Positions 1 through 42,745 of a DNA stretch of 58,197 nucleotides are shown piece by piece. A program made the position numbers and the translations under genes. Source of the DNA: Patescibacteria group bacterium (GTDB taxonomy: Bacteria; Patescibacteriota; Patescibacteriia; UBA1558; GWA2-36-10); contig JBAYIQ010000005.1 in assembly GCA_041665545.1 (NCBI GenBank), positions 1 to 58,197 on the forward strand. The letters run 5' to 3'. The notes under the pieces are model-generated. The model ran no database searches. It saw only the letters and a program-made list of their open reading frames with translations, and was not told the DNA's origin. The first letter of the stretch is position 1, and each line of letters begins with the position of its first letter.

Positions 1-227
1 AATCGTTACCAAATACACCTCAAAGAGGTGCAATTACGTTACAACACTCGCAATCCTCAGAAACTACGCTTACTTGTTAGAAAAATGTTACGTTTTGATG
101 ATAAATAGTAGGCCAGACCGCTTTGACAAGGGGGCTTATTCCTCTTCCCAAACACTTCAAGAGGGCTAGATGTTCCTCCCCTGTCAAGGGGAGGTTGGAG
201 GGGTTAAAAGATTGGGCTAGTAAAGTT

Positions 228-266
228 TTTCAACAAAAAGAAAAGCTCAGTCCCCGTGGACTGAGC
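228..266 (-). terminator. Rho-independent terminator of the Cys-rich ORF
   Basis: 9-bp GC-rich stem GCTCAGTCC (245-253) / GGACTGAGC (258-266) with a 4-nt loop. On the minus strand it is followed by CTTTTCTTTTTGTT. Confidence 0.6.
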
Positions 267-286
267 CTGTGATTGGAAAGACCGTG

Positions 287-538
287 CTACTCGGTCTTCT
301 GAGAAGCCAGAAAGACCGAGCAGTGTTTGTGATGCTCTCCCATGCAGCCATTCTTGATGCGGTGCCCGCAAACGCAGGTACTGCAACAAGGCAAACAGTG
401 CTTGGCCATGGACTGGCCGTCACTGCCTATGGTGTGGCACAGACAAAAGCATTCGTGTGGATCGACATAGCAACTGTCGCTGGAGCCCATCCTCAACTTG
501 TCGGCGATCAAGTCGCCAATTGGCTTAAGGTTGCGCAT
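287..538 (-). CDS. Small Cys/His-rich protein (83 aa), function unknown
   Basis: ORF-track protein MRNLKPIGDL... has 11 Cys and 7 His. GGAGG lies 6 nt upstream of the ATG (minus-strand read AAGAGAGGAGGTCAGTAATG). The coding region is locally GC-rich and has its own terminator. The overlapping plus-strand ORF 269..544 has no SD and a GTG start. Confidence 0.55.
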   Translation of the reverse strand: MRNLKPIGDLIADKLRMGSSDSCYVDPHECFCLCHTIGSDGQSMAKHCLPCCSTCVCGHRIKNGCMGEHHKHCSVFLASQKTE

Positions 539-592
539 TACTGACCTCCTCTCTTAGTTTTGAATTTCTTGGAAGAACCTATTAATAACGAT

Positions 593-621
593 AGCTTATC
601 GTCTAAAAAAACAAATGTCAA
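593..621 (-). promoter_or_regulatory. Putative sigma70-type promoter for the Cys-rich ORF
   Basis: Minus-strand TTGACA (616-621), 17-nt spacer, TAAGCT (593-598). The -10 is weaker than the other promoters in this window. Confidence 0.35.
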
Positions 622-641
622 TAAAAAAAACGCCGGCTGAA

Positions 642-682
642 GAACCGACCCGCGAGGTCGACGCGACCTCGCGGGTCGGTTC
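642..682. repeat. Perfect 19-bp GC-rich hairpin
   Basis: GAACCGACCCGCGAGGTCG, loop ACG, CGACCTCGCGGGTCGGTTC. It sits just upstream of the cassette promoter and is flanked by A8 and T4 runs. Confidence 0.8.
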
Positions 683-737: not shown

Positions 738-1268
738 TTATTTATAACTATTAATCATTTCCATGACCTTGGAGTCGGACGGCAGATCTTCAAAACCGAA
801 AACTTTTTGGCGATTGACTGCTAGCCAGCCAGCAGAGTCATCTCCTCGTTTTTTAAGAACCTCTACACTTTCGGTGCTCGGCTCTCCTCCTTCTTCGGTC
901 GCTGGCTTGTCCACAGTTTGCGTATCAATAAAATAGACATCACTAAGATAAATATTGTACGCATCTTCTTTGGCAACTTTGGCATAATATACTATGTTAT
1001 TTTCTAAATAAATTATTTTATAACCAGCTTCGGCGACTGGCTTCTTGGTCTTCTGCTTGTCAAACATTAAAAAAGCAGACAAGGCCAAAATCAGGATAAT
1101 TAGTAGTAGATAAACTCCGGTAAAATTTTTCTTTTTACCAGTATTGGATTTGCGAGCCACAAAATCTTCAAATTCCATTATTTCCGGCTCGGCTTTTAAT
1201 CTGGTAGTTTCTTTTTTAGTGGTGCTTTTTGCGCGAGGCATAAATTTGTGTTTAATTGCTAATATCAT
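738..1268 (-). CDS. Hypothetical membrane-anchored protein
   Basis: 176-aa ORF with a Lys-rich N-terminus and one hydrophobic helix (GVYLLLIILILALSAFLMF). I recognised no motif. The start codon is uncertain because there are several in-frame Met. Confidence 0.5.
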   Translation of the reverse strand: MILAIKHKFMPRAKSTTKKETTRLKAEPEIMEFEDFVARKSNTGKKKNFTGVYLLLIILILALSAFLMFDKQKTKKPVAEAGYKIIYLENNIVYYAKVAKEDAYNIYLSDVYFIDTQTVDKPATEEGGEPSTESVEVLKKRGDDSAGWLAVNRQKVFGFEDLPSDSKVMEMINSYK

Positions 1269-14073: not shown

Positions 14074-14117
14074 ATTTATACAATCCGAGGTAGCTCAGTG
14101 GTAGAGCAGTTGGCTGT

Positions 14118-14703
14118 ACATTTACATCGTGTATGTGGTATACTTATTGATGTATGCCAGATACAAGAAAATATGTCGATCGTGCTGAGTATTTAAAACA
14201 AGCAGTTGCTAAACGTCGTAAAGATGTGAAAATAATGCTTGTAAAATATAAGGGCGGTAAGTGTAAGACTTGTGGCTATAAAAAATCCGTAGAAGCTCTT
14301 GAGTTCCATCATATAAATGAAAGAAAAAAGAAGTTTGGAATTTCTGGGCAAGGATTAACTAGATCTTGGAAAAGTGTAAAGCAGGAAGCTGATAAATGCA
14401 TCTTGCTTTGCGCAAATTGCCACAGGGAATTGCACGCAAAATAGTGCAGCTTCCTCAAGTAATTGAGGTTGACAAACGGGGTGAACTGTCCCGCAAAACG
14501 GGAGCCCGCCAAAGGCGGTGCCGGGAAGCCTAAGTCTAAAAGATATGGTAATCCGCAGCCAAGCCCTGAACCAGATGGTTCAGGGAAGGTTCAGAGACTA
14601 TCCGAAAGGAGTAGGCAGTATTTACTAGCCGAAGCGCCCCGCATCCTAAAAAATTATAGGATGATGATATAGTCCATCCCTTTAGGAAACTTAAGGATCG
14701 ATG
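14118..14703 (+). mobile_element. Group I intron carrying an HNH ORF
   Basis: The 5' exon ends in U and the intron ends in G. Core strings CCGCAGCCAAGCCC (14553-14566), GTTCAGAGACTA (14589-14600) and GATATAGTCC (14666-14675) match the conserved catalytic-core blocks of Tetrahymena/Azoarcus-type introns as I remember them. I did not confidently identify P1 or the internal guide sequence by eye, so boundaries are accurate to within a few nt. Confidence 0.75.
14154..14444 (+). CDS. HNH homing-endonuclease-like protein (96 aa), intron-encoded
   Basis: CKTCGY...LEFHHINE...LLCANCHRELH is an HNH motif with two CxxC pairs. The ORF lies wholly inside the intron. Confidence 0.8.
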   Translation: MPDTRKYVDRAEYLKQAVAKRRKDVKIMLVKYKGGKCKTCGYKKSVEALEFHHINERKKKFGISGQGLTRSWKSVKQEADKCILLCANCHRELHAK

Positions 14704-14747
14704 TAACCAATTGGTCGTGGGTTCAAATCCCTCCCTCGGAGCCATTA

Positions 14748-30313: not shown

Positions 30314-33300
30314 CTATTTTAGTTCTTCAGCATATTCAGCAAACACCCAGCCAACTTTATTTTCAGTTAAAGCTATTTGATACCAGCCAAATTTTTCTAA
30401 ACCCTGAGCCGCCACTTGACTAAGCAAGTCGTATTTTTCTCCGGCACTTACTTTGGCCACAACGGCTGTTTCTTTGGAAGCTTCCTGCCTGACATTGAGC
30501 CAACCAGTTGGTGTATCTTTAATAATAACTTGTTTCTTCATTAAAATATCTTCCGTAGCGGGTACTGTGCTACTAGAAGTGGAACTGGCACTTTCTGAAC
30601 CAAAACTAAAAGCCATATTATTATCAGCTAAAACAGGAATATTATCAAGCTTATTGACGTCAGTTTCAGAGGCGACGGTCACATTGTTGGCTGACCTAAG
30701 TTCGTCAGTCTTAATATATTTTGATAAATTTTGTCTAATATTAGCCAAAATACCATATTTATCAACTAACAAATACAAAACTATAAAAATCAAAACAAAA
30801 GTAATAAGCCAGACTTTATTTTGTCTGATATTTTTGAACAAGCGAGTAAAAAATTGCTTAATATAGATTAAAAAACTTGTCGATACTTTGGCCTTTGCTT
30901 CGACGCTAGCTATATTGGCTGGACTATTTTTGCTAACTGCTGCTTTCTTCTTTTTTCTGCGCCCACCAGAGGAATTCATTTTTTCCATATCAAGCGGCTT
31001 GCCAGTCAAAATATGCGACTGCAAGGCCATCTGACCATTGGCTATGGCTACTTGATGCTTCCACATGGAGAACAAGATGGTCACTAACAAACCAAAGCCG
31101 GTGACAAAAGCAATAATGATCCCCCACACCGAAATGGTCTGTATACCACCCAAGGCTCCCAAAAATCCGCGAGAGGCATCAGCTTGGCTCAATAGTGACT
31201 TCAATTCATCCAATTCTGTCTGCACACTAATAAAACTTTCTTTATTTTCTCGATAAGTCATAATTTTATCTTGCGGGGAGGCAGTATTTTCTTTTTGAGT
31301 ACGCAGAATTTTTTCTACTTTGCTATCAATATCATTTTTGAGTAATAAAGCTTGAGAAGAAAGTTGATTTTTTTCTAATTTCTTATAAAAATCATTGGCC
31401 TGCGTCTTGGCTATAGTCAAATCATTTTCAGCAATCTGCCAAATATCTCGCATTTTAATAAATTTTTTGACCGAAGCACCCGGAGCCAATTCAATCTCGC
31501 CAGCCGCATACAAAGTATCTAGCTGAACATCGTACTGAATATTGAAACCGCCATCATCCATAATGTGCTCTACTTTAGCTTCCTTTGGAAGATAAATCTT
31601 GAATGGCACTTTTTGAGCAGTCTTGGCTGGATTGGAAAGCATGATGTTCAAATCCACTGAACCAGAGGTGTACCAAGTGCTGACTATCGGAGCCGTGGCC
31701 TGCTGAACCACTTGACGCTGAACAGTGGTGACGGCTTTGTAGTCGGCTAATTTATTACGCACATATTTTATATCCGTCATATTCTCCTGCGAGATGGACA
31801 GTATTGAACTCAAAGTATCGCTATCCAGACGGCCCAGTTTGGTATTGATGTTCTGAATGGAGTTGGAGATGGTACCCATGGCTGTGAACATCTCCTCGGG
31901 CTTCACATTGTAAACATTGGTATTGTTGGTGGTACTACTGCCGGAGCCAACTTCAATATTATCAATACTTGTTTCTAGAGTAGCGATGCTAGCTTCAATA
32001 TTATCTAGTTGAGTTTTGATTAAAGCAATATCTGCCTTGATCAAAGTCACGTCGTCCTTGATGCCAGCCACATCGGACTGGATGGTGCTGATCTTAGTCA
32101 CTGGTACGGCTAATGTTTTTAAAATAGTAAAAGCGTCACTGCTAGCTGGCGCAAAGGGAAGATCTGGTTCTACTGTAATGGCTTTGGTTGTACCATTATA
32201 ATCATCTATTCTTCTGGCTACACCACTGTTTTGGCCAGAAGTAAAAGTCAGCAGTGCGTGAGCATATAAATCATTGACAGCGCTGGTAAGATTTGTGCCA
32301 AATAAAGAAATTGTCGGGCTAACTTCGGCTGTAGAAACAGCGGAGCGAATGGCAATCAAATCATTGGACAACAAATCAACTGAGTTACTCACCGCGTCTA
32401 TACTATTACCCAGTGTCGTTTCAGTGGACTGCAAATCAGATAATGTGGCTAGCGACCCACTGTCTAAATCCGCTCCTGATAAATAACGACCACTGTAGGC
32501 CCAAATAGAAGCCGCGTCCAAAGTAGCAGTATTTGAAGTCTGGGCCAAAATAGTAAAGGTGTCAGCATTGGCAGGAGCCAGAGCCAAAGCAGGATCGACC
32601 GTGATCGCCTTGGTGGTGCCATTGTAGCCCATAATCCTTCTCGCCTGACCAATATTTAAACCCGAGGTGAACAATAAGATATTATTTTTATAAAAATCAT
32701 TAGTGGCATTAGTCAAGGCAGTAGCAAATACTGTGGTTGATGGCGCCAAATCATTCACTGAAGTTTCCGAAACAATCAAGGCATTGATAATTTTATCTAG
32801 CTTAGTGCTGTTGACGCTAATAGCACTAGCCAAAACTGTTTCCGTATCTTGAATATCTGACAAAGTAGCTAAAGAACCAGAGTCTAAAGTGGCACCTGAT
32901 AAATACCTGTCGCCATAGGTCCAGATAGCGGCCGCATCAACTGCCGAGTTGGCTGTCTGCGCTAAAATAGTAAAGGTATCGGCATTAACCGGAGCTAAAG
33001 ATAAAGCTGGCGAAACAGTAACCTGTTTGCTAGCCCCGACATAATCGGTAATACGACGCGCTTGACCAGCGTTGACGCCAGAAGTAAAAACCAAGACACC
33101 GTTGTTATAAAAATCATTACTGTTGCTGGTCAAAGTTGTAATAAATTGATTATCTGAAGCGCCGGCATCATTGACCACTTTTTGTTCCACTATTAAATTA
33201 TTAATCAGCGTATTTAATTGTCCGCTCAAAGTACTTTCGGTAGATTGTATATTTGACAAAGTGGCTAAAGATCCGGAGTCTAAAGCGGCGCCTGACAAAT

Positions 33301-36300
33301 AGCGACCATCGTAGGCCCAAATAGCGGCTGCATCAAGTGAGGCATTGGCGGTTGAGGCCAAAATAGTAAAAGTATCACTGCTAGATGGAGCAACCGACAG
33401 AGCCGGAGTAATAGTCAATTTTTTGGTAGCGCCAACATAATTGCTAATGCGTCTAACCTGACCAGCATTGGATCCAGAGGTAAATACCAAAACACCGTCA
33501 TTATAAAAATCATCATTGGCATTGGTCAGGGTGGTAATAAATTCTGTGGTTGAGGGACTTGGGTCATCAACGGCTTTTTGGGCGACCAATAAATTATTTA
33601 TCAAATTGCTTAAACTATTGGCAACCGCTGTCACCTCAGCTGATGAAGCGCGAGAAGAAATAGTAGTATCAATATTGGTTTTTAATAAAGAGCCAATGCT
33701 ATTGATAGTCGTGATTGAGGTCAAAAGTGTATCCCAAACTCGTTGTGCCGTCAGATCGCCAGATGTTAGGGTGCGAGTTTCATAAGTCCAAATTTCAAGA
33801 GCTAAAGCGGCTAAACCATCATTCTCAATACTAGTAATTGTCCTGGTGCCCTCACTCCAAACATCTGATGCCGTCAAATTACTAGTGCCACGAGAAGAAA
33901 TAGTAGCATTCAAATTATCAACTATCAGTTTGCCAATAGAACCACCCGTAGAAAGCAAAGCTGATGCTATATTCCAGACTTGAGCTGGATCAGATAAGGT
34001 GACTCCACCACTCAAACTGCGGCCACCAGCTGACCAGACATCAGCCGCTGAAATATTATTTAAGGCCTGTATGTCAGCCAAAGTAGCCAAGGAGCCACTA
34101 TTCAAAGTAGCGTCAGTCAAACGACGAACATTGTACTCCCATATTTCTTGGGCAGTCGCCCCGCCACCGCCAGTAGCGCTAGAATAATAACTTAAAATAA
34201 TAAATTCATCATTGAAAGCTGGCGCATAAGGCATGGCCGCATCCACCGTAATTGCTTTGGTGGCGCCATTGTAGCTAGAAATTCTACGGGCAATACCAGC
34301 ATTCTGGCCACTCATCATAACCACCATTTGATTTTGATAAAAATTAGAAGTGGCTTGTGTCATGTCTGTCACAAAGACAGTGGCTGAAGCGGCCACATCA
34401 TTGACCAAGCCCCGCTTGATGGCCAAGCGATCATTTAAAAGTTGCCCAAAAGATCCATCAATATCAGCAAATGACCCCACTTGTGCTCCCCAAATACTAG
34501 TAGCCGTCAAGCCAGTTGACAACCACGGCACCACTGGTTGACCAGAAGAATGAAAATCCAAAGTACCAGTATCTACTGTACCCGATAAAACAGCCATATC
34601 ATCTATGTACACCGATGGCTGTCTAAAAATAATATAATCACCCATCGTGGCATTGGTCAGAGTGGTACTTAAAAGATGTGGCACTACTCCACTACCCTTC
34701 AAATACAATAACTGGGCAGTATTTTTTACAATATCAAATATCTTACCATTAGCGTCTTTAAATTTATAGCCGACCCATTGATTGGTGGTCCAACTTTTAT
34801 CAACATCCTCAACAATGATTGGCAAATAATTACCCAAGGAATCATCGATAATTTCACTGGTGCCAGAATCAGCGGCCACAAAAGCTGACTGCACGGAAAA
34901 TTTTATATCGGCAATAGCTGACTCTGTAGGCGTACCAGACACCACAAACTGTTGCCAATCATTAGCCGTGTCTTGTGCTGTCCAAGTAAGGTTGGCACCA
35001 GTCATACCCAGACCAGATAAGGTAACTGTCGGTAAATTAGTAGACCCATAATAACTATTGATATTCATATAGCCCGTAATGGCTAGTGGCTGGTTAGCCA
35101 CACCAATGACTTTGGCTGTATATTCAAGTGGCGCATCAGGATTCAGCGAATCCAGACGCCACGCATAACCACTAGCTGTGTGAGCAGTGGAATCATTGAG
35201 ACCTAACCCGGAAGTTCGCATATTACCAAAAGTGGTAAAATTAACTATGTCTTTAGTCGAGCTAGAATAATTGCCGCGAATATCAGCTCCGGGGATAGTC
35301 AGACCATAAAAATGTTCTGGTATCCTAGACATATTATTATAATCGGCCATGCCAAACAAAACCGGACTTAATAATTGAGTATTAGAGCCGGTAAATTGCA
35401 TCAATGATTCTGCTTCAAAAGTAGTGGTATTAGCTGGTATACTAATATCTGCCTCATTCCAAGAACCACGACCAAAAATACTACCACTATCCATAATACC
35501 CACATTGGCCGTGGTTTGGGCCACGCTGATTCCTGCGCCATATCCAGCTTGATTTAAGGTGACAGTATCCGAGACCGAGCCATCAAAAACATTATCAGAC
35601 ATCGTGAGGAAAGAATTACCATTGAGCCGTATACCAAAATTATTTACTGAAAAAATATTGTTAGCGATAGTCATTTTGGCTACGCCACTATTTAAATTAA
35701 CTGCTCCGCTAGTAATACCCGTCACACCATTATTATAAAACTGGCTATTAGCAATAGTGTACAAACGTCCAGACACAAAAGAAGCCGCACCATTAGCCGA
35801 GGTCAAAGCCGCATTAGTGTTGCGACATCCCATAAATATACTGCCATCAATGCCAACGTTTTGTGAAGCTGTAGCATTATAACCAGTGCCTAAAGTAGTG
35901 GCGCCAAAGTTGGTGGTCACAAAATATGCTCCCACAGTATTAGTGCCTTGAGTTTTGGCTGATACCGTATAAGCACGATCATAATAATTATAAAATACTG
36001 ACTTACTGACTGTCTGTGTTGGTTTGACCAATGTGGAAGTATAAGGATTGTTCATTATAGAAAAATTACTATACTGATTCTCAGTAGAAAGATGACTAAC
36101 GTTCAGATTCGCTAAACCTGACAAACCCACAGCTACTGTACCAAAAGCATTGCCCATGTGTATGGGCGTGGCCACTGTGGCACCGGTAGCATTTATTTCC
36201 TCATCCGACCACATGTGTATACTACGCTTGAGATTCAACACTGGCGAATTGTAAGGAGCTGAAGTAGAGTCCCGCTTGGCCTTGTGATGGAAAGTAAAAT

Positions 36301-39300
36301 TATTTGACCAGCCAGCCAAAGTGGCCGCTGTACCATTTTCTAGAAAACCAGAACCAAACTTTATCCTAGCTGATGGTGTGTATTTTTCTCCAGTATTATC
36401 CACCCATATTCTTGTGCGATCCGGATAGGTCACAACTCTTATTCTATCATTGCCCGTATCAGCACCGTTGGTAAAAATCATGGCTGGATTGCCATAGGCA
36501 TAGTCTGCCCAAACAAAACCCTCTTGAGGATTCATGGCCGCGTCAAAACTAGCGCGAAAAATATTAATACCAGTACTAGTCGCGTAGCCAGTACCGACAG
36601 TCTCACCTCCCACCCAAGCGCTGGTTGGTGGTGTAAAGTTACCCCAGTCAGTGGCCGAAGTACTGATAGAATTATCAAAAATCGCAAACTCATCCAAAGC
36701 GCCATCAAAAGGCGCAGCAAAATCATAACGATTACCGAGCTTAATCAAACCAGCGTTTATACCTCTAGTACCGACAGCCGACCCCTGACCAATGGTAAAG
36801 GCCGTGCCATTCAACCAAGCTCTTTTGGCGTTAGCTGTTTCATCCCAAGCCAAACGAAAATGATACCAAGTACCAGCGGTAGCTGAAAATGCTTGCCTTA
36901 ACAAGGTACCTTGAGCAGCGGCGGCATACAGGCCAACTTCCAAGAAACCTTCTGGGGTAGAACTGGAAGTATTTATGTGCCTGATAAATAAACGATCAGT
37001 ATCTATCTGAGCAACATTGGCTTGATCAAGCAAATACATACCATAAGGATGCGTGCTAGTAGCTGGATAACCGTTATAAGAGGGCTTGAACCAAAAATCA
37101 ATTGTGCCATTTTGTCTGGTGGTAATTGTGCCACTTTGGGCCTCAATATTATACCTAGTTGGCACCGCGCTACCAGTCAAAGTAAATGCTGGAGCTATCA
37201 TCACCGCGCTACCTATGCCATTCTGACCAGTCCAAGAACCAGTATTGCGTCGCATGTTATCCTGCAAGAGCAATTGACGCGCGCCAAATTTTGGTCCAGT
37301 CGGTGTGCCAGAATTTATACGCAAAGAGATTTCACTATTTGGCGATGTATAGGTACTACCTGCCGTAGCCGTACCAGCAGCACCAGTAGCACTACCAGTG
37401 ACATCATATTTACCACTAGTAGGGTTCCATTCGAAATCCCAAACTTCATATTTGGTATTGACACCAGTAGTAATTGGCACGCTACTATCAAGACCAAAAC
37501 TATTTCTAATAGCCGTAGAACCAATATATATCTTATCCCCTATTTCCGGATTTACTACGCCATTCCAACCACCTTTGTGTTTGATAATAAAATTAAGATA
37601 ACTGCTAGTAAAAGGAACACTCGGATAAGCCGTGCCTATCAGACCAGCACTTTCTCCGGTCACTCGCCAAGAACCAGTATTATTAAAATTATCAGAAAAA
37701 CCAAGGTCCGTGCTTAAATTATCAAATTTTACTTTATTACCCACACCAGCCGAACCAGCACCAGCATAAACACCAAAGCGACCACCTGCGTAGGTGGCAT
37801 TCGTCTGAGAAGTATCCCACGACCCTTCGGTCGGATCAGTATCACAATCTGTGGTAGCCCAAAACTTAGCATTGAGAGTGGTGCCTACGGCCTGCGCTTT
37901 GAGACAATACCAAGCAGAAGTGGCAAAGGCCTTGGAAAAAGCTGAGCCAATTACTGTCGGCACACCTGCCAAGGTAGTATATAAACCAATGGTATTGACT
38001 GCGTTAGTTTTGTTAATCAAAGCGGCATAGCCATTACCATCAATACTTTGCCTAAAAGTAAGACCTAATTTCCTATTACTACCGTCTTCCACATTATCCA
38101 TATACACCAATGCTTTGATGGTATAATCGCCATCACTCAAACTTCCATAGCTATTATGCAAAGCTATGTTGGCTTGATTTGTTTCATTGATATTTAATGT
38201 CCCGTCACTGATGTGCCAAATATAAGGAGCCGACGGCAAAACATTTACTGTACTGGCCATTCTTTGCACCTCTACCCAACCTGGGGAATTACCATATTCC
38301 AACATATACTGCTCATTGGGATTATAGGTGGCTCCTGGTGTCACAGCGCCAATCTTGGCTTCTTGCACGCCAGAAGACACGGTGATGGCTCCAGAGGAAA
38401 GTCTCTCAATACCACTCATGCCCATAGGAGTGGTCTGGTTGGTCGGAGAGGTGGTCCAAGAACTGACTGAATCAACTTTTAATCTAACCCAATAAGCATT
38501 AACTCCATTAACAGTTGTCTTGGCCGGAGTGCCAGTCAAATCATTTGGTGTCCAGGATAAAATACGACGATTGTTAGTAGCGCCATTTTCCGTCAAAAAA
38601 TTACTAGGATTAAAAGACTTCCATTGCCCGCCATTCAATCGGCTGATTGTTGCTGTTTGATCCGTGGTATAGCCCAAGGGCACCGGCTCGGTAAAGGTAA
38701 TAACGCCAGCGGCGATTACGCTAATGCGTCGATAAATAGGATCAGAATTATTATCGTCAATCATCACTACTTGATCAACACCAAAGTTAGCTTGATTGCC
38801 AGAGGTCACTGACACAGTATAAGAATTTATAGTTGTATTGGCTGACAATGGCACGGAATGTCCGGTACGCATTTGGTATTTATAAGCATCGCGGGGTGTA
38901 AAAGATGTCCAGCCAGCGCCATTATAAAATTGCCATGACAAGGAAGCGCTAGCATCCATGGCTACACCCATATTCAACTCCAAAGAATAAATCATGTTAC
39001 TACCTTGATCGCCAAAATATATAGCATCATCAGCCTCTACTGTTGGATTGGCCCCATCCACAAACATGGTCCAAGCTGATGTAGTAGCATAGTTTCCAGA
39101 AAAACCACTTGTACCATTATTATTATAAATATCAGTCAGGGGTATGGTGCCAATTTCTGCCACTTCCATATTTGGTGTGGGCAAAGAATTACGTCCACCA
39201 GCGGTAGCTAGTCCTGTCCAAACTGGAAACTGATTACCATCATCATTGGCTCCCATCCGTAAAGATGAAAAATTGTTATCAACTGCTTGGTTGGTAGCGC

Positions 39301-42300
39301 CAGCGACAGCTATGTTATCCAGTGGCTGCCAATTACCCACTACATTATCCTTGACATCTACCCAAGTATTGCCAGCATCAGCGGAATTGTTACCCAAGAA
39401 ACCCGTGTCAATATTACCATCAATATCTACAGCTAAGTCGCTTTTCATGGTCCGAAAAGCGTCTGAGCCAGCAACATAAAGATTTGTACGCCCGGCGCGA
39501 GCATTTTGTTGAGTAGCCGTAATAGCGCCAGTCATAGTATAAATACCCGCTCGCCTATCAGCTCCAGTAGGTAATTCGGTAGCTGGTCCCTTGGCCACAA
39601 AAGCACTTTGCCCCGTAGTATAGCCCACAACCAAGTTGGCTGTGACCGTAAGCGTTGTCGCATTTTCAACAGCCGCTACTATTCTAGTTGTGGGTAAAGA
39701 ATCATTATCGTCAATTATAATAGTATCACCGGGGTTAAAACCAGTAGTAGAAATTACTGTCAAAGTAGCGCTAACGGCTGTGTCAGCATTTAAATTTGTA
39801 TTGACTGCTGGACTAACATTATCCCAATATATATCTACCAGAGACGAAGCGGGAATAGCCGCTCCACTTTGACCAAAGGCCACTGAAGCATCGGAATCTA
39901 CTAATATTTTGCCAGGGATAGTCAGGCGATAATGCTTGTTAGCACTGGTATCAACATTTAGCTTGGAACCGGGGCAAACAACCGCTGATATCCAACCGCC
40001 ATTTTGTGAATAAGCCGAGTAGTTGGTACGCGTGCCTGCACCATCATTGATGGCATCACCTGACTTACCGGTGTAAGCCATAGCCGCGTCCCAATCACGA
40101 TCTATTGTTACCACGTGCTCTTGTTTGCTAGACCAGTTAAGATCATTTGTTAAAGCCGAGGCATCACCCGTATCTGGATCAGCTTTTCCATTACCAACTA
40201 TTATAAGATCACCATCAGCTGGGGCTGCGGTATTACCCGTACCGTAGGCCACAAAGAAAATGTGTCTATTGCTTAAAAAAGGATAACGAACAAGCGAAGT
40301 TGCCAAAGCTTCCATTTTAGCATAAAACAACAACACGGATGTGGTGCGCGCTAAAAGAGTTGTAGTGCCTGCTGGATTTTGAGTATGATTAAATGTGGTC
40401 CATTTCATTACCGCACCATCAGCCGGAGTACTAACGGACATGTTAGCTGAAATTTCAGCTATCTGAGCATTATCTGCTGTGTTATAACCAGTGACAAAAG
40501 CTGCGTCCAAAATAAGTGATGGCCCACCGCCACAATTAACATCTGTGCCATTTACTGTCGAAATAAAGCGAGTAACAACGACATTGGAATTATTATCCCA
40601 AATCGCGACACTGGGCGAAGTACCAACAGCCGCGGTAAATCCAGCAATACTAGCCACGCAGACTCTAGTAGTGGCTGTAGAATTTGCTGTCAATGTGGTT
40701 ATGGCTCCCTGGACTATTCTTTGTTTCCACGTAGCTTGCGCTATACTAGCATTTTTATCAGTAGTAAAACCAATCACTGTGGCGGCTGTGGTGATAATAG
40801 AAGCACCGCCCGAACAATTAGAATCAACCTCATTTACTGAAGCTACGGTTAAGGAAACAGTGGTTGTATTGGAATCCCACAAGTTTATTGTTTGATTAGC
40901 AGCAAAACCAGTTATTGAAGCCACACACAACCTAGTTGTCGCCGTAGAATTAGCAGTCAGGGTAGTAAATGGTACTCCATCGTTGACCCAGGAAGCTGCT
41001 GTACCACCAGTGGCTGGGGTAGTTAATTTTCTACTTTGGGTACCGGAAACAGAACCAGCCAATGTCCAATTTGAGCTGGCCGAAGAATAAGTGGCAGTCC
41101 AGTGTTGATTTTCGGTACGCCTTACTGTCGGCATACCAGTACCAGCTGCTGAGTTGCCAGCTACCATAGCGGTAAGCAAACCAGCAGCGCTAGAATTACC
41201 GGTCAAAACCAAAGGCATATTCACGGTTGGAGCGCTGGCGCCAGCAATATCAGTAACACCAATGGTTCTCAATGTGCCATCAACTGTAGGAAAATTACCA
41301 TAAGGAGCATTAGCGGCCCAAGTACCAAAAACAGGAGCGCCAGCGCCAAAGTTGCTAATACGAATACCGTAATGTTTGGTGGTCAATACACCCACTGCTG
41401 GATCAAAACGAAAATCAATCATAGCATGCCCAAAATTTCCTGGCGTCAAGTTTTCACCAGACAAGGCCTGATTGAACTGCCAAATAGTTTTGCGCAACAC
41501 TATTGTATCGTCTGGGTAGTTGTAAGCACCCTGAGTGCCGGTAACATATCCCGTGCAAGAGGTAGTGCAACTAGCTGTCGGAAACTCCAAAAGCTCAACC
41601 AAAATATCCGGATTTGATAAAGAAGTAGCCGTCGGATTTTCCATGGATAACATAATGCCAGACAAATCAGCGCTGGCATTGGGTTTGAAACCAATAAACT
41701 GTGAGGTGGCCAAAGTAGCATTGGCTGCCAAGGCCAAATACCCAATTGCCTGTCCACCAGCACTACCATCAGTCGTGCCACCAGGATTGATTGGGTTAAA
41801 ATTGCCAGACTCAGCATCACCGTTGACGCCGTCGCCAGAATAAGCCAAAGCCGTCAGCCAATTTGAACCACTTAAAGTGGTAGTTTGCCCAGAAACTTTT
41901 ACCAAGCCAGTGAAAGTAGCAGCATAAGCTGGTGTCCGATCTCTAAAAAGCCACTCAAAAAGTGGAGTTAAAGAAGCCACACCTAGTGTGGAAATAACCA
42001 AAAAGAAAATCATCCAGCCAGCCATCGCTCGCCTCAACAACAATTGATTTGGCTCCCTGAGTAATTTCTTAAAATCACCAAAACCAATGACCGGTGACAT
42101 GGCCTCCTGAACTTCGCGTCCTTTGGGTAATATCTTTTTTTCGTATGTTTGAGGAATATATTTAATAAATGGCTTAGCTAGCCACAACATAAACAATTTA
42201 AATTCTTTAACCCTAAAGTTAAATTTAATCTTCAGTGACTTGGGACTGGCAAATAAACTAACCGCTTTAGCCCCAAAAAATCCTAAAAATTTGACATAAA

Positions 42301-42745
42301 AAACAATTGTCGCGTACCAGACAATTTTTAATAAATAAAAAATAATTAAATATAGCGCTTTAAAAATATAAAATACCGCTTGAGCCAAGGCATTGGCTAT
42401 AAAACGCATACCTTTTTCTAAAGCTGGGGCTTTTTCTTTGATAAAATAATAAAAACGACTCAAATATTTCCAAGAAAAACGGAAAAAATTTTTCAAAAAT
42501 GGCCCTAAGTCCTCGACAATAAACTCTTTAACCATTGGAGCCAACCATTTTATAAAACGCCAACAATTTTTGAATATAAAAACCAAAACTACTGACAATA
42601 GATAGCCAACTAGCACTAATATTGAACCGACTATCTTAGCTAACCAGACCAATGAATAAAGTATAAATTCTAGAATTTTAATAATTGTTTTTCTGTGGCG
42701 GATAGATGGTTTTAGTCGCCACGAGGGAAGTAGATGTCTATTCAT
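30314..42745 (-). CDS. Giant (4143 aa) surface protein anchored at both ends
   Basis: One uninterrupted ORF. N-terminal ~270 aa have several TM helices. Then come about 3400 aa rich in Thr/Ser/Gly/Ala/Asn, with beta-helix-like (NNIFSVNNFGIRLNGNS) and LamG/concanavalin-like (GTIDFWFKPS...LDEFAIFDN) segments. These are followed by five ~135-aa tandem repeats, coiled coil, two TM helices and a C-terminal SH3b-like domain (GWLNVRQEAS...GWVFAEY). Confidence 0.85.
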   Translation of the reverse strand: MNRHLLPSWRLKPSIRHRKTIIKILEFILYSLVWLAKIVGSILVLVGYLLSVVLVFIFKNCWRFIKWLAPMVKEFIVEDLGPFLKNFFRFSWKYLSRFYYFIKEKAPALEKGMRFIANALAQAVFYIFKALYLIIFYLLKIVWYATIVFYVKFLGFFGAKAVSLFASPKSLKIKFNFRVKEFKLFMLWLAKPFIKYIPQTYEKKILPKGREVQEAMSPVIGFGDFKKLLREPNQLLLRRAMAGWMIFFLVISTLGVASLTPLFEWLFRDRTPAYAATFTGLVKVSGQTTTLSGSNWLTALAYSGDGVNGDAESGNFNPINPGGTTDGSAGGQAIGYLALAANATLATSQFIGFKPNASADLSGIMLSMENPTATSLSNPDILVELLEFPTASCTTSCTGYVTGTQGAYNYPDDTIVLRKTIWQFNQALSGENLTPGNFGHAMIDFRFDPAVGVLTTKHYGIRISNFGAGAPVFGTWAANAPYGNFPTVDGTLRTIGVTDIAGASAPTVNMPLVLTGNSSAAGLLTAMVAGNSAAGTGMPTVRRTENQHWTATYSSASSNWTLAGSVSGTQSRKLTTPATGGTAASWVNDGVPFTTLTANSTATTRLCVASITGFAANQTINLWDSNTTTVSLTVASVNEVDSNCSGGASIITTAATVIGFTTDKNASIAQATWKQRIVQGAITTLTANSTATTRVCVASIAGFTAAVGTSPSVAIWDNNSNVVVTRFISTVNGTDVNCGGGPSLILDAAFVTGYNTADNAQIAEISANMSVSTPADGAVMKWTTFNHTQNPAGTTTLLARTTSVLLFYAKMEALATSLVRYPFLSNRHIFFVAYGTGNTAAPADGDLIIVGNGKADPDTGDASALTNDLNWSSKQEHVVTIDRDWDAAMAYTGKSGDAINDGAGTRTNYSAYSQNGGWISAVVCPGSKLNVDTSANKHYRLTIPGKILVDSDASVAFGQSGAAIPASSLVDIYWDNVSPAVNTNLNADTAVSATLTVISTTGFNPGDTIIIDDNDSLPTTRIVAAVENATTLTVTANLVVGYTTGQSAFVAKGPATELPTGADRRAGIYTMTGAITATQQNARAGRTNLYVAGSDAFRTMKSDLAVDIDGNIDTGFLGNNSADAGNTWVDVKDNVVGNWQPLDNIAVAGATNQAVDNNFSSLRMGANDDGNQFPVWTGLATAGGRNSLPTPNMEVAEIGTIPLTDIYNNNGTSGFSGNYATTSAWTMFVDGANPTVEADDAIYFGDQGSNMIYSLELNMGVAMDASASLSWQFYNGAGWTSFTPRDAYKYQMRTGHSVPLSANTTINSYTVSVTSGNQANFGVDQVVMIDDNNSDPIYRRISVIAAGVITFTEPVPLGYTTDQTATISRLNGGQWKSFNPSNFLTENGATNNRRILSWTPNDLTGTPAKTTVNGVNAYWVRLKVDSVSSWTTSPTNQTTPMGMSGIERLSSGAITVSSGVQEAKIGAVTPGATYNPNEQYMLEYGNSPGWVEVQRMASTVNVLPSAPYIWHISDGTLNINETNQANIALHNSYGSLSDGDYTIKALVYMDNVEDGSNRKLGLTFRQSIDGNGYAALINKTNAVNTIGLYTTLAGVPTVIGSAFSKAFATSAWYCLKAQAVGTTLNAKFWATTDCDTDPTEGSWDTSQTNATYAGGRFGVYAGAGSAGVGNKVKFDNLSTDLGFSDNFNNTGSWRVTGESAGLIGTAYPSVPFTSSYLNFIIKHKGGWNGVVNPEIGDKIYIGSTAIRNSFGLDSSVPITTGVNTKYEVWDFEWNPTSGKYDVTGSATGAAGTATAGSTYTSPNSEISLRINSGTPTGPKFGARQLLLQDNMRRNTGSWTGQNGIGSAVMIAPAFTLTGSAVPTRYNIEAQSGTITTRQNGTIDFWFKPSYNGYPATSTHPYGMYLLDQANVAQIDTDRLFIRHINTSSSTPEGFLEVGLYAAAAQGTLLRQAFSATAGTWYHFRLAWDETANAKRAWLNGTAFTIGQGSAVGTRGINAGLIKLGNRYDFAAPFDGALDEFAIFDNSISTSATDWGNFTPPTSAWVGGETVGTGYATSTGINIFRASFDAAMNPQEGFVWADYAYGNPAMIFTNGADTGNDRIRVVTYPDRTRIWVDNTGEKYTPSARIKFGSGFLENGTAATLAGWSNNFTFHHKAKRDSTSAPYNSPVLNLKRSIHMWSDEEINATGATVATPIHMGNAFGTVAVGLSGLANLNVSHLSTENQYSNFSIMNNPYTSTLVKPTQTVSKSVFYNYYDRAYTVSAKTQGTNTVGAYFVTTNFGATTLGTGYNATASQNVGIDGSIFMGCRNTNAALTSANGAASFVSGRLYTIANSQFYNNGVTGITSGAVNLNSGVAKMTIANNIFSVNNFGIRLNGNSFLTMSDNVFDGSVSDTVTLNQAGYGAGISVAQTTANVGIMDSGSIFGRGSWNEADISIPANTTTFEAESLMQFTGSNTQLLSPVLFGMADYNNMSRIPEHFYGLTIPGADIRGNYSSSTKDIVNFTTFGNMRTSGLGLNDSTAHTASGYAWRLDSLNPDAPLEYTAKVIGVANQPLAITGYMNINSYYGSTNLPTVTLSGLGMTGANLTWTAQDTANDWQQFVVSGTPTESAIADIKFSVQSAFVAADSGTSEIIDDSLGNYLPIIVEDVDKSWTTNQWVGYKFKDANGKIFDIVKNTAQLLYLKGSGVVPHLLSTTLTNATMGDYIIFRQPSVYIDDMAVLSGTVDTGTLDFHSSGQPVVPWLSTGLTATSIWGAQVGSFADIDGSFGQLLNDRLAIKRGLVNDVAASATVFVTDMTQATSNFYQNQMVVMMSGQNAGIARRISSYNGATKAITVDAAMPYAPAFNDEFIILSYYSSATGGGGATAQEIWEYNVRRLTDATLNSGSLATLADIQALNNISAADVWSAGGRSLSGGVTLSDPAQVWNIASALLSTGGSIGKLIVDNLNATISSRGTSNLTASDVWSEGTRTITSIENDGLAALALEIWTYETRTLTSGDLTAQRVWDTLLTSITTINSIGSLLKTNIDTTISSRASSAEVTAVANSLSNLINNLLVAQKAVDDPSPSTTEFITTLTNANDDFYNDGVLVFTSGSNAGQVRRISNYVGATKKLTITPALSVAPSSSDTFTILASTANASLDAAAIWAYDGRYLSGAALDSGSLATLSNIQSTESTLSGQLNTLINNLIVEQKVVNDAGASDNQFITTLTSNSNDFYNNGVLVFTSGVNAGQARRITDYVGASKQVTVSPALSLAPVNADTFTILAQTANSAVDAAAIWTYGDRYLSGATLDSGSLATLSDIQDTETVLASAISVNSTKLDKIINALIVSETSVNDLAPSTTVFATALTNATNDFYKNNILLFTSGLNIGQARRIMGYNGTTKAITVDPALALAPANADTFTILAQTSNTATLDAASIWAYSGRYLSGADLDSGSLATLSDLQSTETTLGNSIDAVSNSVDLLSNDLIAIRSAVSTAEVSPTISLFGTNLTSAVNDLYAHALLTFTSGQNSGVARRIDDYNGTTKAITVEPDLPFAPASSDAFTILKTLAVPVTKISTIQSDVAGIKDDVTLIKADIALIKTQLDNIEASIATLETSIDNIEVGSGSSTTNNTNVYNVKPEEMFTAMGTISNSIQNINTKLGRLDSDTLSSILSISQENMTDIKYVRNKLADYKAVTTVQRQVVQQATAPIVSTWYTSGSVDLNIMLSNPAKTAQKVPFKIYLPKEAKVEHIMDDGGFNIQYDVQLDTLYAAGEIELAPGASVKKFIKMRDIWQIAENDLTIAKTQANDFYKKLEKNQLSSQALLLKNDIDSKVEKILRTQKENTASPQDKIMTYRENKESFISVQTELDELKSLLSQADASRGFLGALGGIQTISVWGIIIAFVTGFGLLVTILFSMWKHQVAIANGQMALQSHILTGKPLDMEKMNSSGGRRKKKKAAVSKNSPANIASVEAKAKVSTSFLIYIKQFFTRLFKNIRQNKVWLITFVLIFIVLYLLVDKYGILANIRQNLSKYIKTDELRSANNVTVASETDVNKLDNIPVLADNNMAFSFGSESASSTSSSTVPATEDILMKKQVIIKDTPTGWLNVRQEASKETAVVAKVSAGEKYDLLSQVAAQGLEKFGWYQIALTENKVGWVFAEYAEELK
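32090..34330 (-). repeat. In-frame tandem coding repeats inside the giant gene
   Basis: The marker AAAATAGTAAA[AG]G recurs at 32119, 32545, 32962 and 33358 (spacings 426, 417 and 396 nt). A diverged unit lies near 34192. The protein unit is F.T.LT...DFY...L.FTSG.N.G..RRI..Y.G.TK..TV.P.L..AP...D.FTIL, followed by IW.Y..R.LSGA.LDSGSLATLS. Confidence 0.85.

Follow-up and report, generated by a model that had tools for sequence, protein, structure and literature searches.

An accessory single-gene cassette of a Patescibacteria group bacterium encodes a conserved Cys/His-rich protein of a rare family apparently shared with phages

We looked at a small gene close to the start of a contig from a Patescibacteria group bacterium (GenBank assembly GCA_041665545.1, contig JBAYIQ010000005.1); the whole stretch of 58,197 nucleotides (nt) that was analysed is called the window here. 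The gene lies on the minus strand at 287-538 and, according to the list of open reading frames (ORFs) and to its orthologues, encodes from an ATG start a protein of 83 amino acids (aa), MRNLKPIGDLIADKLRMGSSDSCYVDPHECFCLCHTIGSDGQSMAKHCLPCCSTCVCGHRIKNGCMGEHHKHCSVFLASQKTE, with 11 Cys and 7 His. This minus ORF is a protein-coding gene under purifying selection, and the cassette that carries it is accessory and compositionally foreign in this Patescibacteria lineage. We consider it rather probable that the product is a small protein of the cytoplasm, a phage-type binding module scaffolded by zinc; it would act alone and bear a variable disordered N-terminal tail. An earlier note, made from the sequence alone, had described the ORF, its Cys and His content and a first stretch of 22 residues free of Cys, and all of this was borne out, the first Cys being residue 23. 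The protein has no signal peptide.

Within this 300-nt segment there are four overlapping ORFs of 58-91 aa, and the segment folds better than its shuffles on both strands (z -3.97). For this reason, a non-coding RNA or a spurious ORF had to be excluded: the locus could be a structured RNA, or the 91-aa ORF of the plus strand (269-544), which public gene callers picked, could be the true gene, in which case the Cys/His ORF would simply result from GC-rich sequence with few stops. When positions 1-1400 were scanned against Rfam at E<=1, no match fell within 228-620, and all that was obtained were terminator-like sub-threshold hits at 624-793 and a separate FourU hit (E 0.65); at gathering thresholds over the whole window, no RNA family was found in the Cys/His ORF. 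The two strands were then compared through their substitutions. L015 (CAZILH010000009.1), a syntenic relative, carries the minus ORF with 90% aa and 88% nt identity, and the orthologue in L017/L018 is 85% identical at the protein level. Between the window and L015 there are 30 substitutions, which fall 6, 7 and 17 times on the three codon positions of the minus frame, and this third-position bias argues against the non-coding and antisense explanations. They correspond to 16 synonymous and 9 non-synonymous codon changes in the minus frame, with every Cys and His kept, and to 3 synonymous and 24 non-synonymous changes in the antisense 91-aa ORF. For the same pair, the Nei-Gojobori ratio of non-synonymous to synonymous substitution rates (dN/dS) was 0.117 overall, 0.013 for residues 26-74 and 0.35 for the 25 N-terminal residues, while it was 0.05-0.09 for the neighbours DprA, TopA and membrane protein and 1.6-1.8 for the antisense frame. 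Across the comparisons with L015 and L017, dN/dS ranged over 0.12-0.27 for the minus ORF, 0.013-0.20 for its Cys/His core and 0.8-1.8 for the antisense frame.

The earlier note had left to be seen whether the Cys positions are conserved and whether the plus-strand ORF is the conserved frame. All 18 Cys and His residues are retained in both L015 and L017 (18/18), although at 8 of these positions the codons differ synonymously between the three lineages, and the substitution pattern clearly favours the minus frame. Retention of the ligands through synonymous changes, together with the low dN/dS, establishes that the minus ORF is coding; the plus-strand ORF, with its dN/dS of 0.8-1.8, is not. Moreover, distant homologues with 35-50% identity keep the Cys/His pattern despite a DNA GC content of 0.33-0.57, which is explicable only by selection at the protein level. 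Altogether, we see hardly any chance that the locus is an RNA gene or an antisense by-product.

An ENA assembly and a JGI record (also at NCBI) contain the same contig, and both are identical to the window over 1-760. Public gene calls (a 'hypothetical protein' at JGI, and those of ENA and Logan) place the plus-strand 91-aa ORF at 269-544, or a version of it with 70 aa, in place of the minus gene, and at L017/L018 no gene is called on either strand at the cassette. Because the calls are on the wrong strand or missing, the Cys/His product is absent as a called gene: an exact-sequence look-up found the 83-aa product called in no assembly, and neither a word-indexed search nor phmmer found a close relative of it.

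The gene is surrounded by signals that suggest a self-contained, monocistronic and expressed-looking unit. The Shine-Dalgarno sequence GGAGG (545-549, minus strand), read directly and in alignment A7, lies 6 nt 5' of the ATG as the earlier note had it, and is GGGGG in the orthologues of L015 and L017. A putative promoter, TTGACA-17 nt-TAAGCT, was read directly at 593-621 on the same strand (TTGACA 621-616, TAAGCT 598-593). The arrangement reported by the earlier note is thus present, and the window, L015 and L017 share its hexamers and spacing exactly though the flanking sequence diverges; yet TAAGCT fits the TATAAT of the E. coli consensus at only 3/6 positions, and for that reason a consensus scan did not list the promoter. 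On the other side of the gene, the terminator scan gave an intrinsic terminator at 232-268 (minus strand), also as previously noted, made of an 11-bp stem with a 4-nt loop (243-268) followed by a T-rich tail (242-232). Its fold energy is -19 kcal/mol (z -3.85), and the same hairpin occurs in L015 and L017. Just 5' of this terminator, the last 10 codons of the gene (287-323, minus strand) form a 9-12-bp RNA hairpin with arms 287-298/312-323, apparently retained in L017 via G-U-compatible changes (alignment A7); it may be a stabiliser of the mRNA 3' end or a coincidence.

Upstream, a perfect hairpin had been described as part of the unit with a 19-bp stem. The hairpin exists, but its arms are 21 bp long (640-660/664-684) and it apparently does not belong to the unit. 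It adjoins the -35 element and is followed by T8 at 623-630, so that the whole feature spans 623-684 on the minus strand, with a fold energy of -43.4 kcal/mol (z -6.9). In L015 its left arm is degenerate and in L017 the hairpin is absent; a regulatory role in the cassette was rejected for its lack of conservation in L017. It probably serves as an additional terminator, or as an insulator that blocks read-through from the gene of a 176-aa membrane protein (738-1268, minus strand). The bidirectional terminator of that gene, found at 696-725 by the terminator scan and shared with L016, marks the upstream cassette boundary.

Next, we searched for relatives of the protein. An exhaustive phmmer search against 1.84 billion representative proteins returned five small proteins (P0002, P0003, P0005, P0006 and P0007) and two giant repetitive proteins that are apparently spurious. 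A word-indexed protein search gave no match with the single 83-aa sequence, and with its profile versions only P0008 and P0009 were gained; P0009 is encoded by L013/L014, which came from a scan of IMG/VR. In all, about 8 distant homologues were obtained. Related loci were located by a search with a 4-sequence alignment. The conserved Cys/His domain covers residues 30-73 (320-451, minus strand) and reads CxCxCH-x11-HCxxCC-xxC-x-C-x11-H-x3-C in the window protein (alignments A2, A3, A6 and A8), the family consensus being CxCxCH-x(6-17)-H(C)xxCC-xx(C)-x(1-2)-C-x11-H-x3-C. C30, C32, C34, H35, H47, C51, C52, C57 and H69 are invariant, and C73, P50, I62 and G65 nearly so; in the first family alignments, C73 was invariant too, which made ten such positions. 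The window protein has the invariant ligands at the fixed spacing and a C or H at or next to position 73, as the family definition says. Pairwise BLASTP E values between members range from 1e-5 to 1e-11, and a regular expression for the N-terminal motif, run on six-frame translations of all loci of the analysis, matched once per locus (twice in P0002) and nowhere else.

Members differ around this core. In P0002 the domain is present as two tandem copies and in P0006, as in P0002, it is an internal or tandem module of a larger protein, while P0003, P0005, P0008 and P0009 have only a stub of about 10 residues before the first Cys. In the phage protein P0009, a His one residue further on takes the place of the last Cys (C73), turning C2HC into C2H2. 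In GenBank phages and PLSDB plasmids, tblastn gave only a half-motif and no homologue of full length: gp116 of Aeromonas phage 4_4572 bears the N-terminal half of the domain alone (E 0.02), which hints that the CxCxCH...H...CC cluster may be an independent module. This gp116 (L019, MK813943.1, 75875-76375) is a 166-aa hypothetical protein ending ...CNCPCHKSGGKVMHIVACC*.

No Pfam match was obtained for the query or any of 10 family members at E<=10, no NCBIfam match for the query at E<=10, and no PADLOC defence model matched 8 family members at E<=1. The family is unmatched in Pfam, NCBIfam, PHROGs and PADLOC, for the query as for its homologues, and has no significant match among solved structures. 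A metagenome scan with peptide patterns gave no match, and literature searches turned up nothing relevant on the motif or on metallothioneins or Cys-rich small proteins of the Candidate Phyla Radiation (CPR). Judging by these searches, the Cys/His proteins appear to be a very rare, previously unannotated family in Patescibacteria and phages.

To see how the domain might fold, AlphaFold was run with 8 sequences. The predicted local distance difference test (pLDDT) score was 89-94 at residues 31-80 and below 50 at residues 15-22, with two strands (52-54 and 60-62) and then a helix (66-72) predicted at pLDDT above 90. A profile search of PDB sequences returned weak matches only, among them the TRAF-type finger of FLN29, which has the same spacing (E 0.24). 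The ligand spacing of TRAF/UBZ4 fingers, C-x2-C-x11-H-x3-C with two conserved hydrophobic positions, is found in the A6 alignment; the window protein itself deviates from it by C-x1-C in place of C-x2-C. Neither Pfam zf-TRAF nor the PDB gave a significant profile or structure similarity to a TRAF/UBZ4 finger, and the likeness, as modelled, would be one of type (beta-beta-alpha C2HC) rather than proof of membership. One or two further metals would be bound by the 7-8 ligands left over (CxCxCH...HCxxC), which would bring the total to about three Zn per domain. The Cys-to-His swap of P0009, the tandem copies of P0002 and the half-motif of gp116 together point to a ligand behaviour typical of zinc sites. 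Two other readings of the motifs were tried and rejected: a heme-binding CxxxCH, as there is no signal peptide and the pattern is far longer than one motif, and the ZAS anti-sigma motif (HxxxCxxC), whose spacing does not match.

A dense set of Cys and His does not by itself identify the metal it binds, and CxCxC and CC motifs can bridge metals, so that the protein might instead hold an iron-sulfur (Fe-S), Cu(I) or redox-active Cys/His centre and work as a small electron carrier, a redox sensor or a holdase-type thiol switch. Patescibacteria are mostly anaerobes, and Fe-S proteins are common in anaerobes. Against this, neither Pfam nor NCBIfam gave an Fe-S or rubredoxin-type match, the C-terminal C-x2-C-x11-H-x3-C with its hydrophobic spacing is a classical zinc-finger signature, a Cys-to-His ligand swap is typical of Zn sites, and a phage replication module is not a context suggestive of electron transfer. 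Such a centre is, in our opinion, improbable.

The earlier note had also proposed a metallothionein-like protein, that is, a buffer or detoxifier whose Cys/His thiolate cluster would store or sequester Zn, Cd or Cu. Metal binding fits the ligand pattern, the ligand swap and the predicted fold, but the metallothionein part has no Pfam support, the prokaryotic metallothionein family being among those that matched none of the 10 members. Small size, lack of a signal peptide, a domain made of 22% Cys and His, and CxC and CC motifs typical of metallothionein clusters would all suit it, as would an accessory gene with its own promoter and the ancestral neighbour of the site in L015, L016 and L017, which encodes a MerR-family helix-turn-helix (HTH) protein, a family that includes metal sensors. 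That MerR gene is however present with or without the cassette (L016), and with 79 residues its product is too short for a C-terminal metal-sensing domain. Positions that are not ligands (I62, M66, P50 and G64) are conserved at zinc-finger spacing, a defined beta-beta-alpha fold is predicted with pLDDT of about 90, and about half of the homologues lie amid phage replication genes, an odd site for a metal store. The ligand pattern looks more like structural zinc sites than like a metallothionein, and we regard a metal-storing role as unlikely.

The second proposal of the earlier note was a precursor of a ribosomally synthesised and post-translationally modified peptide (RiPP), in which a maturase would recognise residues 1-22 as a Cys-free leader and crosslink or modify the Cys-rich core. 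A short protein with a Cys-free N-terminus and a Cys-dense C-terminal part invites this idea, and since the window ends 230 nt past the terminator, the window alone could not exclude a maturase beyond its edge. In the relatives that show both flanks, the genes are those of DprA, TopA and the membrane protein on one side and of MerR, IleRS, RecO, a CLIPPER-domain protein and TGT on the other, with no radical-SAM, LanM, cyclodehydratase or MNIO gene; likewise, the gene content around the window gene and in L015-L018, L004-L006, L009, L010 and L013 includes no radical-SAM, LanM, YcaO or MNIO gene. The phage and other cellular loci thus hold no maturase either, and an all-against-all BLASTP of the neighbours at 8 loci found no common family except the Cys/His gene itself. 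What lies past the terminator in the window is the end of a multi-copy repeat and not a maturase operon. The supposed leader is the least constrained part of the protein (dN/dS 0.35 vs 0.013 in the core) and is reduced to the short stub in P0003, P0005, P0008 and P0009, the core is predicted to be folded and occurs as an internal or tandem module in P0002 and P0006, and no NCBIfam precursor family was matched at E<=10. The precursor proposal did not hold up, and we think it very improbable.

To define the cassette, we compared the window with its relatives. L016 shares the membrane-protein, DprA and TopA genes on one flank of the site, and its other flank carries the MerR, IleRS and RecO genes. 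It lacks the cassette, an unrelated inverted-repeat element occupying the same site, and matches the window only from about 683 onwards; the comparison gives the cassette an extent of roughly 232-686. Homology of the window to L015, L016 and L017 ends directly after the terminator of the Cys/His gene, and the downstream genes in these three encode the 79-aa MerR-family HTH protein, IleRS, RecO, the CLIPPER-domain protein and TGT. The GC-richness pointed out by the earlier note is real: the ORF has a GC content of 0.54, reached by only the top 5.6% of 252-nt windows, and a GC content at third codon positions (GC3) of 0.71, against 0.41 for the GC of the whole window and 0.36-0.44 for the GC3 of the neighbours. 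Cassette GC3 is 0.67-0.71 in hosts of about 0.40-0.42 GC, and in the phage loci the family gene matches the local GC. Synonymous divergence (dS) between the cassette-bearing lineages is about 0.3-0.5. Absence from L016, foreign GC3 and this dS fit a horizontal, moron-like acquisition followed by vertical inheritance, and a phage may have been the source of the cassette.

Elsewhere, the family gene is found in two kinds of setting. L004 (DNA methyltransferase, polymerase exonuclease subunit), L005 (helicase, clamp loader, polymerase) and L013 (a 98-kb IMG/VR contig with an HNH endonuclease) are phage-type loci, and L006 is phage-like in layout only, being a string of small co-directional ORFs with no phage-family match; in all four, the gene sits within such a string. 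On the cellular contigs L009 and L010 it stands alone amid housekeeping genes.

The intergenic hotspot that separates the membrane-protein gene from the MerR gene holds differing short elements with terminal inverted repeats, GTCATTCTGGA...TCCAGAATGAC in L016 (7200-7360) and GTCATTCCCGCGAAGGCGGGAAT...CCGGGATGAC in L015 (6330-6420), which look like miniature inverted-repeat transposable elements. The TopA of the window is MFA6253329.1 ('Patescibacteria group bacterium'). L015 was deposited as a metagenome-assembled genome of an 'uncultured Gammaproteobacteria bacterium', but at 90% identity its TopA and DprA cluster with proteins labelled 'Patescibacteria group bacterium'; an error of binning or labelling is probable.

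The explanation that we favour, a zinc-scaffolded binding module, would work as follows. After a variable and disordered N-terminal extension (residues 1-28), a compact domain of about 45 residues would be held together by metal bound to Cys and His, most likely three Zn(II). Its N-terminal half would be a metal cluster built from CxCxCH...H(C)xxC(C) and its C-terminal half a beta-beta-alpha C2HC finger, C-x(1-2)-C-x3-hydrophobic-x4-hydrophobic-x2-H-x3-C. The gene would have come as a horizontally acquired phage-type single-gene cassette into a variable intergenic hotspot that runs from the terminator of the membrane-protein gene to the MerR-family gene, where purifying selection would maintain it. 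Most likely, the protein would be neither an enzyme substrate nor a bulk metal store and would work alone, through zinc-stabilised binding of a macromolecular partner. Since family members are neutral to acidic (pI 4.8-7.9) and several phage members have acidic C-terminal tails, a protein would be a likelier partner than DNA.

Several points weigh against this explanation. C48 and C55 are not invariant, so that there may be two metal sites, three or a bridged cluster, and a CxC-rich cluster with bridging thiolates would also suit a metallothionein, an Fe-S or a Cu(I) site. The family counts about 10 sequences, so functional inference from context is thin; transfer may have run from phage to cell or from cell to phage; and the -10 element is weak.

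A bolder version can be offered tentatively, and we hold it to be possible though doubtful. In it, a new multi-zinc mini-domain, made of the 7-8-ligand CxCxCH...HCxxCC cluster and a TRAF-like C2HC finger, would be a host-interaction factor associated with early phage replication, captured repeatedly by Patescibacteria as an accessory gene, with the family hidden by antisense or missing gene calls. If so, the stand-alone Patescibacteria gene could, for example, serve as a decoy against phages or regulate a partner in replication or recombination.

Several other features of the window were observed. Positions 1-120 (plus strand) are the end of a multi-copy repeat, the same stretch of about 110 nt, ending ...TAGTAGGCCAGACCG, being found at the ends of six other Ga0172379 metagenome contigs with unrelated flanks; the repeat is probably a mobile element. 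Within it are the final 35 codons of an ORF on the plus strand (...RNRYQIHLKEVQLRYNTRNPQKLRLLVRKMLRFDDK*, stop at 106-108), for which Pfam gave no match, and a perfect CACCTC-AAA-GAGGTG palindrome at 17-31. Two independent assemblies of the contig stop within 5-18 nt of window position 1; both break at the same place because a multi-copy repeat ends there. Directly beyond the repeat end, similar G-rich motifs such as TGT(C/T)AAGGGGAGGT(T/C)GG(G)AGGGGTTA flank several copies (window 121-210; first 150 nt of L022-L024). In the window the motif is CCTCCCCTGTCAAGGGGAGG (175-194, a hairpin unique within the window), then TTGGAGGGGTTAAAAG; such motifs may represent a favoured target site or a repeat associated with it.

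At about 14085-14745 (plus strand), a group I intron (Rfam RF00028, 81 bits, 14473-14696) apparently interrupts a tRNA gene. Between the halves of this gene, 5' tccgaggtagctcagtggtagagcagttggctgta... and 3' ...aaccaattggtcgtgggttcaaatccctccctcggagcca, lie about 590 nt, which include an ORF of some 96 aa (about 14154-14444) whose CxxC...HH...CxxCH pattern is HNH-like. ARAGORN did not report this tRNA, whose anticodon looks like GUA by eye. A giant ORF of 4143 aa lies at 30314-42745 on the minus strand.

At this locus, the public calls that we saw thus offer a 'hypothetical protein' on the wrong strand or nothing, and miss the real product; small GC-rich genes in AT-rich CPR genomes may be missed likewise more widely. 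The rare new Cys/His domain connects Patescibacteria with phage replication modules, and to our knowledge almost nothing is known of gene exchange between CPR bacteria and phages or of the small accessory proteins of such reduced CPR genomes. With about 45 residues, a predicted compact fold and perhaps three metal sites, the domain would be tractable for nuclear magnetic resonance and metal-binding work. The practical weight is moderate, as this would be another small zinc-protein family and not a new type of system.

Finally, the protein can be set beside known systems. Like the precursors of Cys-rich RiPPs (SCIFF/ranthipeptides, sactipeptides and lanthipeptides), the Cys/His ORF is short, with a Cys-free N-terminal and a Cys-dense C-terminal part; unlike theirs, its gene has no maturase in 8 loci, its N-terminus is dispensable and not conserved, and its 'core' is predicted to be folded and is strongly conserved. 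The bacterial metallothioneins (SmtA/BmtA, Metallothio_Pro) are, as this protein is, small, cytoplasmic and rich in Cys and His with CxC motifs, and bacterial SmtA uses Cys and His ligands in a zinc-finger-like fold. The Cys/His protein differs from them by the lack of a Metallothio_Pro match, another ligand spacing, conserved hydrophobic positions and a gene found in phage replication modules. The TRAF-type and UBZ4-type C2HC beta-beta-alpha fingers (FLN29/TRAFD1, PDB 2d9k; RAD18 UBZ, PDB 5vf0) have the ligand spacing of its predicted C-terminal finger, apart from the C-x1-C of the window protein. In contrast to phage morons and small early phage proteins with zinc-finger motifs, the cassette lies outside any recognisable prophage, between housekeeping genes, and is vertically inherited (dS of about 0.3-0.5); like them, it consists of one gene that comes with a promoter and terminator and differs from the host in composition, it is present or absent between close relatives, and its homologues are found among the small ORFs of phage replication modules.

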